Below, one piece after another: positions 5,762 through 16,739 of a DNA stretch of 31,137 nt. The stretch lies in the IMG/VR virus record IMGVR_UViG_2565956719_000009. One strand, 5' to 3'. The notes beneath the pieces are model-generated. The model was not told the DNA's origin. It ran no database searches and was given only the letters and a program-made list of their open reading frames with translations. The stretch comes from a virus (lineage: Duplodnaviria > Heunggongvirae > Uroviricota > Caudoviricetes). Positions within the stretch are counted from its first letter, which is position 1, and every line of letters begins with the position of its first letter. The position numbers were made by a program, and so were the translations under genes.

Positions 5762-6084
5762 TTTTTTGCCCGTCCATATTCAACGGCTTCTTTGAGGAGT
5801 TCATTTTCCATCGTTTTCTTGCCGAGCAGGCGCTGGAGTTCTTTAATCTGCTTCATGGCGGCAGCAAGTTCAGAGGCAGGAACAACCTGTTCTCCGGCGG
5901 CGACAGCAGTAAGACTTCCTTCCTGGTATTGCTTACGCCAGAGAAATAACTGGCTGGCTGCTACACCATGTTGCCGGGCAACGAGGGAGACCGTCATCCC
6001 TGGTTCAAAGCTCTGCTGAACAATTGCGATCTTTTCCTGTGTGGTACGCCGTCTGCGTTTCTCCGGTCCTAAGACATCAATCAT
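5719..6084 (-). CDS. insC: IS2 OrfA (InsC), HTH protein; fused to InsD by -1 frameshift
   Basis: Internal start [41 protein letters not shown]... matches IS2 InsC; overlaps insD; A6G slippery heptamer on the minus strand at ~5762-5768. Confidence 0.9.
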
Positions 6085-8381: not shown

Positions 8382-9359
8382 GTGTTCGGGGGTTTTATGA
8401 GCAGCAAGCTTCATGGTCTTGTCTGGGAAGGGTGCGCCTTCACCGGCATGATCTTATCCAGGGTGGCGGTTATGGCCCGTCTTGCAGACTACAGCAATGA
8501 CGAGGGCGTGTCATGGCCTGCCATTGAAACTATCCGGCGTCAGATCGGTGCAAGAAGTGAATCCACAGTGAAATCGGCTATTGCAGAACTGGCGAAAGAG
8601 GGCTGGCTGACGAAGGAAGAGCGTAAGGTCGGTGGGCGTAATGTAAGCAATATCTATCGGCTTAATGTGGAAAAACTCGAAGCAGCTGCGGCGGCGGCGC
8701 GTGAGTCATATAAACCGAAAAGAAAAATTAGCCCGGCAAAAAATGACCCGTTAACAGTTGACCCGTCAAATATTGACCCCTCAACGGTTGACCCGTCAAA
8801 TTTTGATGGATCAACTGTTGATAAAAAACTGCCGATTAGGGGGGCGATGATTGACCCCGATCCGTCAGTATTAAAACCTGATCCGTCAGATAAAAGATCT
8901 TCTTGTCCGGACGCTTCGCAACCGGACCCGCAGACGGCTGAACAGGATTTTTTAACCCGACACCCTGACGCGGTTGTGTTCAGTGCGAAAAAACGCCAGT
9001 GGGGAAGTCAGGAAGATTTGGTGTGCGCACAGTGGATCTGGGGACGAATCGTGAGTCTTTACGAGCAGGCGGCCAGCTATGATGGCGAGATCACTAGACC
9101 GAAAGAACCCAACTGGACAGCATGGGCCAATGACGTTCGCACAATGCGGATGCTGGATGGCAGAACTCACAGACAAATTTGTGAAATGTTTGGGCGTCTC
9201 CAGCGGGATTCGTTCTGGGTAAAAAACATCATGAGTCCGGCAAAACTCCGGGAAAAATGGGATGAACTGGTTATCCGCCTGGGGCGTTCGCCTGCGCAGC
9301 GTTGCGTGAATCACATTTCTGAACCGGACACTGAAATACCGCCGGGATTCAGGGGGTGA
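8382..9359 (+). CDS. Replication initiator, lambda O-like (N-terminal wHTH, origin iterons inside the gene)
   Basis: 325 aa; N-terminal HTH; 15-bp-period DNA iterons at 8740-8830 encode the peptide repeat VDPSN-IDPST-VDPSN-FDGST; followed by a DnaC-like loader. Confidence 0.7.
   Translation: MFGGFMSSKLHGLVWEGCAFTGMILSRVAVMARLADYSNDEGVSWPAIETIRRQIGARSESTVKSAIAELAKEGWLTKEERKVGGRNVSNIYRLNVEKLEAAAAAARESYKPKRKISPAKNDPLTVDPSNIDPSTVDPSNFDGSTVDKKLPIRGAMIDPDPSVLKPDPSDKRSSCPDASQPDPQTAEQDFLTRHPDAVVFSAKKRQWGSQEDLVCAQWIWGRIVSLYEQAASYDGEITRPKEPNWTAWANDVRTMRMLDGRTHRQICEMFGRLQRDSFWVKNIMSPAKLREKWDELVIRLGRSPAQRCVNHISEPDTEIPPGFRG
8740..8830. repeat. Candidate replication origin: TTGACCCGTCAA-type iterons at 15-bp spacing followed by a short A-rich stretch
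   Basis: GTTGACCCGTCAAA (x2), ATTGACCCCTCAAC, TGACCCGTTAACA, TTTGATGGATCAAC in tandem inside the initiator ORF; more GATCCGTCAG repeats at ~8850-8890. Confidence 0.55.
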
Positions 9360-10904: not shown

Positions 10905-11345
10905 TTGCCGGAGGCGCTTATGGCAAAAGTATTTACACAAGAAGAGCGGGAAAAAATTAAAGGGCAGGTTGTTGAACTTGTACGTCTGAGCGGTCGCGAG
11001 ACGTTGCGGCAACTGGAAGCCAGGACAGGTGCGACAAGATATCTGATGAGTGTTCTCGCCAGAGAGCTGGTTGCCAGTGGCGATGTATACAACTCTGGTT
11101 ACGGGTTATTCCCGTCTGAACAGGCGCGTAAGGACTGGCAAAATGCTCGCAAAAAACTCTCAAGGGCAAAGGTGAAGAAACCTGCAGTGGTTGATCCGGA
11201 CCTTATCTGGTCGTTACCAGACGGCGAAATACGCCGCTACGACAGGCGCCTGAATATAATCTGTCGCGAGTGCCGGAAGAGCGAAGCTATGCAGCGTGTA
11301 CTGGCATTTTATCAAGGAAATGTTAGGTATTTTAGACGTTACTAG
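10905..11345 (+). CDS. Hypothetical protein, N-terminal winged-helix-like and C-terminal basic region
   Basis: 146 aa; likely true start is the ATG ~15 nt into the track ORF (MAKVFTQ...); stop-start coupled to the upstream gene. Confidence 0.5.
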   Translation: MPEALMAKVFTQEEREKIKGQVVELVRLSGRETLRQLEARTGATRYLMSVLARELVASGDVYNSGYGLFPSEQARKDWQNARKKLSRAKVKKPAVVDPDLIWSLPDGEIRRYDRRLNIICRECRKSEAMQRVLAFYQGNVRYFRRY

Positions 11346-11498
11346 ATTAAAGAGCATTAGTTCAGATGTGAATTGACATTTTCATGGCGCAGGGTAGAGC
11401 CAGCGTGGTTGTCCGCTTTGCGTCAAAACCAGATATTACCAGATTTAGACATATATTCCCGATAGACCTGCTCTGATGCTACACTCTGTGCTATTTTC

Positions 11499-12185
11499 AT
11501 GACCCCAATAAAAATATTTATGACTATTGCTGATTTCAAACGGCCTAAATTGGAGCTCCCAAACGGGGCAAACAAACTACTACTGCACTCTTGCTGTGCT
11601 CCATGTTCCGGTGAAGTGATGGAGGCGCTTCAGGCCTCGGGAATCGACTACACCATCTTTTTCTACAACCCGAACATTCATCCTCAGAAAGAGTATTTAA
11701 TTCGTAAGGATGAAAATATTCGCTTTGCTGAACAACACGGCGTGCCGTTTATCGATGCTGATTACGACACCGACAACTGGTTTGAACGTGCCAAAGGAAT
11801 GGAATGGGAGCCTGAGAGGGGGATCCGTTGTACCATGTGTTTTGACATGCGTTTTGAGCGGACAGCGTTGTACGCTGCTGAAAATGGTTTCAGTGTGATC
11901 AGCAGTTCACTGGGCATTTCACGCTGGAAAAATATGCAGCAGGTTAACGAGTGTGGGCGGCGAGCTGTTGCGCATTATCCGGGTATGGTGTACTGGGATT
12001 ATAACTGGCGCAAGCAGGGCGGCTCGTCCCGTATGATTGAAATCAGCAAGCGCGAAAAATTCTATCAGCAGGAATATTGTGGCTGTGTGTATTCTCTGCG
12101 CGATACCAATCTACACCGCAAATCTCAGGGACGCCCTCTTATCAAAATTGGCCAACTCCACTACGGAAAAGAAGAGAAGGAGTGA
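11499..12185 (+). CDS. queH: QueH-like epoxyqueuosine reductase (DUF208 family), prophage-borne
   Basis: 228 aa with the DUF208/QueH hallmarks as recalled: [39 protein letters not shown]; preceded by a 150-bp intergenic region with promoter-like hexamers. Confidence 0.7.
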
Positions 12186-12422
12186 TTTTATGGATCACCT
12201 TTCTGATTGATTTCATATTGGCGAGGTGACGTGAGTTAAGTAGAATGGCTGCGGGTGCTTGAGGCTATCTGTCTCAGGCATGAACACTGAAAGGCAGATA
12301 GAGAAAAGCCCCAGTTAACATTTCGCGTCCTGCAAGACGCTTAACATTAATCTGAGGCCCAATCTATGTCTCACAAATGTAGGTTAGCCTCTTACGTGCC
12401 GAAAGGCAAGGGGAAGCAGGCT

Positions 12423-12578
12423 ATGAAGCAGCAAAAGGCGATGTTAATCGCCCTGATCGTCATCTGTTTAACCGTCATAGTGACGGCACTGGTAACGAGG
12501 AAAGACCTCTGCGAGGTACGACTCCGAACCGGCCAGACGGAGGTCGCTGTCTTCACAGCTTACGAACCTGAGGAGTAA
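12423..12578 (+). CDS. hokD: Hok/Gef-family type I toxin, HokD/RelF-like
   Basis: MKQQKAMLIALIVICLTVIVTALVTRKDLCEVRLRTGQTEVAVFTAYEPEE: single TM helix plus conserved C-terminus, near-identical to RelF/HokD as recalled; track ORF extends in frame upstream to 12366. Confidence 0.85.
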   Translation: MKQQKAMLIALIVICLTVIVTALVTRKDLCEVRLRTGQTEVAVFTAYEPEE

Positions 12579-12646
12579 GAGACCTGGCGGGGGAGAAATC
12601 CCTCGCCACCTCTGATGTGTCAGGCATCCTCAACGCACCCGCACTT

Positions 12647-12674
12647 AACCCGCTTCGGCGGGTTTTGTTTTTTT
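12647..12674 (+). terminator. Rho-independent terminator downstream of hok
   Basis: AACCCGC-TTCG-GCGGGTT stem-loop followed by TTGTTTTTTT. Confidence 0.65.
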
Positions 12675-15689: not shown

Positions 15690-16739
15690 ATGCTTAATAC
15701 TGTAAAAATATCCAGTTGTGAGTTAATCAACGCCGACTGCCTGGAATTTATCCGGTCGTTACCCGAAAATTCTGTTGACCTGATAGTCACGGACCCGCCG
15801 TACTTTAAAGTGAAGCCTGAGGGCTGGGATAACCAGTGGAAGGGCGACGATGATTACCTGAAGTGGCTGGACCAGTGTCTGGCGCAGTTCTGGCGGGTGC
15901 TGAAACCTGCCGGAAGTCTTTACCTGTTCTGTGGTCATCGCCTGGCATCTGATATCGAAATCATGATGCGTGAACGCTTCAGTGTGCTGAACCATATTAT
16001 CTGGGCGAAGCCGTCCGGACGCTGGAACGGATGCAACAAGGAAAGGCTGCGGGCGTATTTCCCCGCCACAGAGCGCATTCTGTTCGCGGAACATTATCAG
16101 GGGCCGTATCGTCCGAAAGATGCCGGGTATGCGGCGAAGGGCAGTGCACTGAAACAGCATGTGATGGCCCCGCTGATTTCTTACTTTCGTGATGCGCGCG
16201 CGGCCCTGGGGATAACGGCAAAACAGATTGCAGATGCCACAGGAAAGAAAAACATGGTGTCGCACTGGTTCAGTGCCAGTCAGTGGCAGCTACCGAATGA
16301 AAGCGATTATCTGAAATTACAGGCGCTGTTTGCCCGGGTGGCAGAAGAGAAGCATCGGCGTGGTGAACTGGAAAAGCTCCACCACCAGCTGGTGGATACG
16401 TATACCTCACTGAACCGGCAGTATGCGGAGCTGCTGAGTGAATATAAACATCTGCGGCGGTATTTTGGCGTGACGGTGCAGGTGCCGTATACCGATGTGT
16501 GGACGCATAAACCGGTGCAGTTCTATCCCGGGAAACATCCGTGCGAAAAACCGGCAGAAATGCTGCAGCAGATAATCAGCGCAAGTAGCCGTCCTGGTGA
16601 TCTGGTTGCGGATTTTTTCATGGGGTCGGGTTCAACGGTAAAAGCGGCGATGGCACTGGGGCGTCGTGCGATTGGTGTTGAGCTGGAGACCGGACGTTTT
16701 GAGCAGACAGTCAGGGAAGTTCAGGATTTAATCGTTTGA
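15690..16739 (+). CDS. DNA methyltransferase, DPPY-type (N6-adenine or N4-cytosine), orphan
   Basis: 349 aa; catalytic motif IV LIVTDPPY near the N-terminus and AdoMet motif I DFFMGSGST near the C-terminus (beta-class order); no adjacent restriction endonuclease ORF. Confidence 0.85.
   Translation: MLNTVKISSCELINADCLEFIRSLPENSVDLIVTDPPYFKVKPEGWDNQWKGDDDYLKWLDQCLAQFWRVLKPAGSLYLFCGHRLASDIEIMMRERFSVLNHIIWAKPSGRWNGCNKERLRAYFPATERILFAEHYQGPYRPKDAGYAAKGSALKQHVMAPLISYFRDARAALGITAKQIADATGKKNMVSHWFSASQWQLPNESDYLKLQALFARVAEEKHRRGELEKLHHQLVDTYTSLNRQYAELLSEYKHLRRYFGVTVQVPYTDVWTHKPVQFYPGKHPCEKPAEMLQQIISASSRPGDLVADFFMGSGSTVKAAMALGRRAIGVELETGRFEQTVREVQDLIV

Follow-up and report, generated by a model that had tools for sequence, protein, structure and literature searches.

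A QueH-family gene in the cargo slot of Escherichia coli lambdoid prophages: a probable cobalamin-independent last step to queuosine

Background

Why should a lambdoid prophage carry a gene for the last step of queuosine synthesis into a host that already has an enzyme for that step? The question is raised by one open reading frame (ORF) in IMG/VR record IMGVR_UViG_2565956719_000009, a stretch of 31,137 nucleotides (nt) from a Caudoviricetes virus that is referred to here, at its full length, as the window. A first-pass annotation, made from the sequence alone, had attributed this ORF to QueH, the cobalamin-independent family of epoxyqueuosine reductases (DUF208), and regarded it as a moron, i.e., an independently expressed accessory gene. 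The maximal ORF in the ORF list, at 11499..12185 on the + strand, has the 228 amino acids (aa) that were claimed for it, with the correction that the coding sequence probably begins at the second ATG (11520..12185, + strand; 221 aa plus stop), where RefSeq also starts it.

The enzyme of the host, QueG, is an epoxyqueuosine reductase that depends on cobalamin and a [4Fe-4S] cluster (PMC5175355, PMC4646009); other cobamide enzymes of E. coli are MetH, ethanolamine ammonia-lyase and methylmalonyl-CoA mutase (PMC11841063). The mechanism proposed here is that a different member of the Enterobacteriaceae supplied queH from its chromosome, along with a native extended -10 promoter and a short leader, and that the gene is now lodged between a DUF977 gene and hok/sok, in a slot that E. 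coli lambdoid prophages use for cargo. The product of queH, an iron-sulfur enzyme working without cobalamin, would make queuosine from epoxyqueuosine at position 34 of tRNA-Asn, tRNA-Asp, tRNA-His and tRNA-Tyr. The prophage would thereby give its lysogen a second, B12-independent last step beside the B12-dependent QueG, and this extra route should matter where cobalamin is scarce or its uptake has been lost. Taken as a whole, the reading of a functional QueH, captured with its native promoter and giving the lysogen a B12-independent means of completing queuosine, is considered probable.

Assignment to the QueH family

The first-pass annotation had suggested a profile search and structural modelling against Thermotoga QueH, and both were carried out. 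The putative protein matched the Pfam family QueH (PF02677) over positions 1–174 of the 175 in the profile (E = 1.1e-65; 221.5 bits, against a cut-off of 23.5), and such a value places the match far beyond chance. QueH was the sole domain found in the Pfam search, and a B12-binding domain was absent. Each of the four DUF208/QueH signature motifs named in the first-pass annotation was located in the translated ORF (+ strand): HSCCAPCS at 11586..11609, FFYNPNIHP at 11658..11684, RCTMCFDMR, with a CxxC pair, at 11826..11852, and EYCGCVYS, with a CxC pair, at 12072..12095. When aligned to the QueH of Thermotoga maritima (PDB 7lc5), the adjacent cysteines of the first motif were the equivalents of Thermotoga C9 and C10, while the last two motifs aligned with RCERC and YCGCVFS respectively. 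The six family cysteines, C25, C26, C104, C107, C187 and C189 (221-aa numbering), were therefore all present and all aligned with cysteines of Thermotoga QueH; they were also invariant in 20 of 20 proteobacterial QueH proteins. In the Thermotoga structure the six conserved cysteines (CC, CxxC and CxC) are reported to bind a [4Fe-4S] cluster and an additional iron. The pattern CC..C, CxxC and CxC was also common to QueH-family homologues from records labelled Staphylococcus, Listeria and Acinetobacter phage.

A difference from the Thermotoga enzyme concerned the third cysteine of the first motif, Cys29 (CCAPC), which occupies the position of Thermotoga Asp13 (CCAPD). The alignment showed CCAPC in the Staphylococcus-, Listeria- and Acinetobacter-labelled homologues, in two gut sequences, and in Providencia and Photorhabdus; it is therefore usual among the diverse QueH sequences aligned, and CCAPD in Thermotoga is the exception. 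Since the PDB holds D13N and C9S mutants of Thermotoga QueH, these residues appear to be mechanistically important. Cys29 and Asp13 may be functionally equivalent.

The only solved relatives returned by a sequence search of the PDB were T. maritima QueH (7lc5 and variants; E = 8e-22), with the cysteine motifs aligned. When an AlphaFold2 model built with 20 homologues was compared with the PDB, the top five matches were all Thermotoga QueH (E = 4e-9; target-normalised template modelling score 0.70–0.73); the next were the sulfur transferases TtuA and LarE, members of the same superfamily. Three observations weigh against this assignment and the activity it implies: the model had a mean predicted local distance difference test (pLDDT) of 74, i.e., moderate confidence only; no NCBIfam model matched at E ≤ 0.001; and no experiments on the prophage QueH were found in the searchable literature. 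The missing NCBIfam match reflects the content of the library and not the failure of a biological feature; the RefSeq name QueH was presumably given by another rule. With a full-length Pfam match, all conserved cysteines and a predicted fold like that of Thermotoga QueH, the protein is almost certainly a QueH-family enzyme, as first proposed, and is very probably active as an epoxyqueuosine reductase, to judge from its sequence. According to Zallot et al. (2017), E. coli with a mutated queG regains queuosine when given QueH genes of other bacteria, and enzymes of the family are said to need no cobalamin, both in that work and in a 2021 paper on the Thermotoga structure.

Purifying selection and distribution

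The evidence that queH has been kept functional came from five prophage alleles: that of the window, that of phage HannyBb, and three from E. coli chromosomes. The ratio of non-synonymous to synonymous substitution rates (dN/dS) was 0.04–0.09, with dS reaching 0.46 and dN lying between 0.002 and 0.023, and none of the five had a disrupted reading frame. Such low dN/dS values indicate that QueH has been maintained as a functional protein in prophages, rather than being carried as a decaying passenger.

As the first-pass annotation supposed, E. coli has QueG for this step; every one of the 5426 complete E. coli genomes contained queG (coverage ≥80%). The route brought by the prophage is thus a second one, through an enzyme not homologous to QueG, and QueH is always redundant with QueG in this species. 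queH itself was found in 1032–1047 of the 5426 genomes (approximately 19%), nearly always in single copy and on the chromosome, and its carriers included O104:H4, O157:H7, avian pathogenic E. coli (APEC) and meningitis strains. In IMG/VR, at least 191 viral contigs carried queH; the best 80 of these 191 were all identical, E. coli-type copies.

Redundancy with a universal queG is what would be expected if queH were a neutral passenger, of no benefit, that had spread by hitch-hiking with successful prophages. There is, moreover, no known phenotype for the difference between epoxyqueuosine and queuosine, and the decayed fragments of another QueH lineage on E. coli plasmids demonstrate that such genes can rot. 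However, strong purifying selection in the prophage lineages, persisting to the highest dS observed, and the intact frame of every allele are at odds with neutrality, as are the conservation of a promoter-like box and the occurrence of the cassette with several different neighbours (see below). Most of 984 full-length copies also had nucleotide identities of ≥95%, a count made by identity alone and not by frame. A neutral passenger was accordingly regarded as improbable, and maintenance of a functional QueH was preferred.

The plasmid copies were rejected as queH, being frameshifted, truncated fragments of a different lineage. Approximately 60 E. coli plasmids (72–76 kb) contained such a fragment, with 68–75% nucleotide identity, for example at 9003–9124 of NZ_CP148283.1, a 75.8-kb IncFII/RepB plasmid; insertion sequence elements, a tyrosine recombinase and an NleG effector gene were found around it. 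Apart from HannyBb, the QueH matches in the phage database were likewise discarded, being either unverified contigs or bacterial sequence wrongly filed under phages. Those labelled Staphylococcus and Listeria 'phage' were UNVERIFIED_ORG contigs, while 'Acinetobacter phage MD-2021a' (CAKLQH020000001.1, 328 kb) resembled a bacterial contig, with soxR, tadA, cynX and LysR genes around QueH. The QueH label in the Acinetobacter record, 'putative prophage protein', was probably transferred from the E. coli prophage copy.

Chromosomal relatives and a conserved promoter-like element

Where might the gene have come from? Prophage QueH was 92% identical to the protein of Scandinavium, 91% to that of Kluyvera and 89% to those of two Enterobacter species; identities of 79–86% were found with QueH from Erwinia, Providencia, Photorhabdus, Serratia and others, and of 74–79% still with alpha- and beta-proteobacterial enzymes. 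QueH is unusually conserved, with 74–86% amino acid identity across alpha- to gamma-proteobacteria. No phage genes surrounded chromosomal queH in any of the contexts checked, which were those of Scandinavium, Providencia, Photorhabdus and a metagenome contig. The neighbours in Scandinavium and the metagenome contig were dehydrogenase, LysR and Hcp genes, while queH adjoined tmcA and purC in Providencia and benE in Photorhabdus. Among 80 species-level loci, only that of Escherichia albertii shared the phage neighbours of the prophage gene. The proportion of G-C in the queH cassette was 0.47, against 0.52 and 0.51 in its flanks, and the third-position value (0.53) was inside the range of neighbouring genes; this proximity in composition fits a donor within the Enterobacteriaceae. 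Two QueH records resembled contamination or binning errors, labelled 'Bacillus subtilis SK7B5' (77% identity) and Candidatus Avacidaminococcus, a metagenome-assembled genome (86%).

The prophage and chromosomal genes had in common an extended -10-like element upstream. In the window this was TGCTACACT (TGn followed by TACACT) at 11477..11485 on the + strand, 42 nt 5' of the ATG at 11520. The block TCTGATGC[T/C]ACAC (11472–11484) was near-invariant among the five prophage alleles, with a single T/C variant, and the rest of the leader differed at about a quarter of its bases, as counted on the alignment. An element of the form TGCTACA(A/C)T was found 42–43 nt 5' of the ATG in the chromosomal homologues as well as in the window and HannyBb alleles; at -42/-43, Scandinavium and Kluyvera had TGCTACAAT, Enterobacter quasihormaechei TGCTACACT and a Logan metagenome contig TGCTAAAAT. 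The second Enterobacter species had CGCTACAAT. Four-fold degenerate sites differed by 44–70% in the same comparisons, and were thus essentially saturated. Because the box was kept despite this saturation, queH would appear to have been captured with its native promoter, which has since been maintained in the prophage.

The case for this promoter is made from comparative conservation only, and several details tell against it. A generic sigma-70 scan called no promoter 5' of queH on the + strand, the conserved box included; one base of the -10 element was changed in each of two prophage alleles, to TACACA in allele L013 and CACACT in allele L015; and no Shine-Dalgarno sequence was evident before either ATG (11499 or 11520). 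Expression of queH from its own promoter in lysogens is, on balance, slightly favoured by the conservation of the element. A structured RNA or riboswitch was also considered for the 150-nt upstream region, and was rejected since the predicted fold was no better than that of shuffled sequence (z = -0.55) and Rfam returned only sok and a weak isrK-like match, both downstream.

The position of the box also bears on the start codon, which is probably the ATG at 11520. In the identical prophage annotated by RefSeq, queH starts at this second ATG (WP_000150294.1, 221 aa). Conservation among the five prophage alleles begins here also, in that MT[IV]ADFKRP onward was kept, while the preceding seven codons varied (e.g., MTPIKIF in the window and MNLINTF in HannyBb). 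The chromosomal homologues are 214–222 aa in length, and the conserved -10 box would leave ATG 11499 a leader of only ~6 nt. The RefSeq start, N-terminal conservation, homologue length and leader space therefore all favour the shorter form.

The cargo slot and status as a moron

A 2.6-kb query around queH showed that E. coli lambdoid prophages use the interval from the DUF977 gene to hok/sok as a cargo slot, or hot spot. Elsewhere it was occupied by an alpha/beta hydrolase gene on the opposite strand (O157:H7), by a gene for a Sll1717-family P-loop ATPase (NRG 857C), by a DUF7167 gene set, or by an ORF6N gene with RelE/ParE nearby. The queH cassette itself recurred with several different neighbours; in one prophage, a gene for a KwaB-like protein, and not hok, followed directly. 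Relative to prophages with other cargo (loci L002–L005), homology ended at 11311–11438 on the left and restarted at 12188–12234 on the right. Left-side matches of prophages without queH reached 11420 in L003 and 11433–11438 in H73 and H89, while the right breakpoint fell 2 nt past the queH stop codon. In the most divergent queH allele, L013, shared sequence began at ~11470. These breakpoints, together with the L013 boundary, delimit a cargo unit of ~720–750 bp, comprising a short upstream piece and the ORF. The segment found only in queH-bearing prophages occupies 11439..12187 (+ strand), with a minimal shared unit at ~11470–12187; the proximal part of the intergenic region, at 11346..11438 (+ strand), is common to prophages without queH and is phage backbone 3' of the DUF977 gene, not queH cargo.

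The same slot holds queH in HannyBb, a free-living temperate Escherichia phage (45 kb) in which the gene is annotated 'hypothetical protein'. In the HannyBb/ETEC6 group of alleles, a truncated remnant of a DNA methyltransferase gene was found between the DUF977 gene and queH (2313–2498 in L014 and 5762–5968 in HannyBb), and the slot has therefore been rearranged more than once.

These patterns allow the description of queH as a moron to be evaluated. Presence or absence at one position among homologous phage genomes was observed. A scan called no terminator-like site after the stop codon (12185) until the hok terminator (12647–12664), so that transcripts would run into hok/sok, and the base composition (0.47 against 0.51–0.52) was not distinct. 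With no terminator at its 3' end and a composition close to that of its flanks, queH is not a textbook moron; from its sequence context, it is a moron by position and probably by promoter, but not by terminator or composition. The first-pass view of an independently expressed accessory gene therefore stands with respect to the variable slot, the tight breakpoints and the conserved promoter-like box, while the lack of a scanned sigma-70 promoter, of a terminator and of a G-C content different from the flanks does not agree with it.

Given that defence-like cargo occurs in or near the slot elsewhere (the KwaB-like protein beside queH, the Sll1717-family ATPase and RelE/ParE) and that phages use 7-deazaguanine chemistry on DNA (PMC6884629), the enzyme might have been re-purposed, for anti-phage defence, counter-defence or 7-deazaguanine in DNA, and no longer serve tRNA maturation. 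This was judged very improbable. The protein retains 89–92% identity to chromosomal housekeeping QueH along with all conserved residues, and its membership of a defence system was rejected, there being no PADLOC match. In the annotated identical prophage, none of the other queuosine or 7-deazaguanine genes (DpdA, tRNA-guanine transglycosylase (TGT), QueA, QueC, QueD or QueE) was found, while none of QueA, QueG and QueH was found in those phages that modify DNA (PMC6884629). A role in tRNA maturation was therefore retained for the prophage enzyme.

Gene order and a possible role in lytic growth

The position assigned to queH by the first-pass annotation, between the replication module and a nin-like block, was borne out by its neighbours. 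Replication-type genes lie upstream, with DUF1627 and DUF977 genes; the last of this replication-side module, encoding a DUF977/Ren-like exclusion protein, occupies 10905..11345 on the + strand (RefSeq; PHROGs phrog_142, E = 5e-46). It is followed by an intergenic region that had been put at ~150 bp and measures 153 nt if the gene starts at ATG 11499 and 174 nt if it starts at ATG 11520. Downstream, the predicted hok locus was confirmed as a hok/sok type I toxin-antitoxin module at 12218..12664 (+ strand), using the promoter and terminator scan, Rfam and RefSeq; its parts are a promoter-like site (12218–12246), sok (12253–12428; Rfam RF01794, 120 bits), mok/hokD (12366/12423–12578; hokD being annotated by RefSeq in the identical prophage) and a terminator (12647–12664). 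A weak isrK-like Rfam match at 12587–12668 (27 bits against a gathering score of 50, E = 0.003) overlaps the stem-loop of this terminator. Further 3' are DUF968/HNH, RusA and antiterminator Q genes, and then the DNA methyltransferase gene (15690–16739) and three tRNA genes (within 16789–17038) that had also been noted at first.

This arrangement suggests another possibility, that queH serves the phage, being transcribed with the early rightward genes during lytic growth and topping up queuosine on host tRNA for phage translation. The gene is oriented like the replication and nin genes, and there is no terminator-like site from 10800 to the hok terminator at 12647, so lytic read-through would include it. 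A parallel exists in Shewanella, where phage infection was found to raise both queG expression and queuosine levels (2026 preprint, 10.64898/2026.03.05.709803). However, the prophage genes had no excess of NAU codons; such enrichment was rejected, with values of 0.56–0.58 in early and late genes against 0.53–0.65 in the host genes at hand. Retention of the promoter-like box of the chromosomal copies suggests that queH is expressed independently of the phage programme. Nor could the link to the phage tRNAs that was initially suggested be sustained, because these have the identities Met/Ile(CAT), Arg(TCG) and Arg(TCT), and no queuosine tRNA is among them. A role in lytic growth was therefore thought unlikely, if less so than neutral carriage, and a role in the lysogen was preferred for queH. 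The tRNA at 16789–16864 was identified by ARAGORN as Met (anticodon CAT), whereas RefSeq gives the identical gene as tRNA-Ile, of the lysidine-dependent Ile2 type.

Possible consequences for the lysogen

If queH is active in lysogens, what would the host gain? E. coli deprived of B12 is reported to accumulate epoxyqueuosine, and Acinetobacter baylyi reportedly has both QueG and QueH naturally (Frey 1988, Zallot 2017). On this footing, completing queuosine independently of B12 would be the likeliest effect of the prophage gene. Two considerations count against a gain. We know of no established physiological difference between tRNA with epoxyqueuosine and tRNA with queuosine. Deletion of queG left the growth of E. 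coli unchanged in one study (PMC11841063). Taken together, these make any benefit a conjecture, and that prophage QueH confers a measurable benefit under B12 limitation is accordingly put forward as a tentative suggestion.

Links of queuosine with biofilm formation, virulence and metal stress are reported for E. coli (PMC10570037, PMC9508795), and a link with the response to infection by phages comes from the preprint cited above (10.64898/2026.03.05.709803). A wider hypothesis, equally tentative, is lysogenic conversion at the level of tRNA modification: QueH made from its own promoter could keep the four tRNAs fully queuosine-modified without cobalamin, whether in B12-poor niches or after loss of BtuB under pressure from phages or colicins, and so change how biofilm and virulence genes rich in NAU codons are translated in roughly a fifth of E. 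coli strains, among which are O104:H4, extra-intestinal pathogenic E. coli (ExPEC) and APEC lineages. Were the enzyme active and expressed in lysogens, that fifth of strains, outbreak and extra-intestinal pathogens among them, would complete queuosine in a manner unlike K-12, and the tRNA of carrier strains would be fully modified without vitamin B12. A temperate phage would then plainly be altering the tRNA modification state of its host.

Annotation status

The identification of QueH is not new, given that RefSeq applies the label 'epoxyqueuosine reductase QueH' in ~1000 complete E. coli genomes and that at least 191 IMG/VR contigs carry the gene. In PHROGs the family is phrog_3217, of 'unknown function', and its profile of 188 positions begins at residue 34 of the 221-aa protein, leaving out the CCAPC motif. 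Its members were therefore called from an internal methionine, i.e., as truncated gene calls, and since the profile lacks both the N-terminus and a name, phage annotation pipelines miss QueH. In a 2019 survey of queuosine-related genes (PMC6884629), homologues of QueA, QueG and QueH were all reported as absent from the viruses covered, and a literature search found no paper discussing phage-borne QueH in E. coli. The biochemistry is thus ordinary and the carrier mildly surprising. A practical outcome is that the annotation of phrog_3217 and of the HannyBb gene can be corrected to QueH.

Comparison with known systems

The nearest functional counterpart of prophage QueH is the QueG of the same cells (b4166), which is predicted to catalyse the same reaction on the same four tRNAs. 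The two are non-homologous, and QueG is a cobalamin-dependent core gene product, whereas queH is accessory (~19% of genomes). The structural reference is T. maritima QueH (7lc5), with which the prophage enzyme has the same cysteine motifs and the best-matching predicted fold, differing in the cysteine that replaces Asp13. The closest relatives are the chromosomal enzymes of Enterobacterales (Scandinavium, Kluyvera, Enterobacter, Erwinia, Providencia and Photorhabdus). Chromosomal QueH of this order belongs to the same family profile and has the same cysteine motifs, the promoter-like box at -42 and a similar length (214–222 aa), at 79–92% identity; the prophage copy differs in occupying a lambdoid cargo slot, not a place among housekeeping genes, and in that every E. 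coli host already has QueG.

As a genetic element, queH can be compared with the morons of lambdoid phages, such as bor and lom of lambda and the morons of HK97. It is similarly a single extra gene, present or absent between similar prophages, with a promoter-like element and dispensable for the phage life cycle. Unlike these, it lacks its own terminator, with only 2 nt separating its stop codon from the hok/sok side of the slot; its G-C content is near that of its flanks, and its product is a tRNA-modification enzyme and not a surface or exclusion protein. Lastly, the sets of 7-deazaguanine genes in other phages (FolE, QueD, QueE and QueC with DpdA) belong to the same family of pathways, queuosine and 7-deazaguanine. 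Those phages carry early pathway genes and a DNA transglycosylase, with no QueA, QueG or QueH (PMC6884629), whereas in the prophage described here DpdA is absent and the pathway is represented by its final, tRNA-specific step alone.

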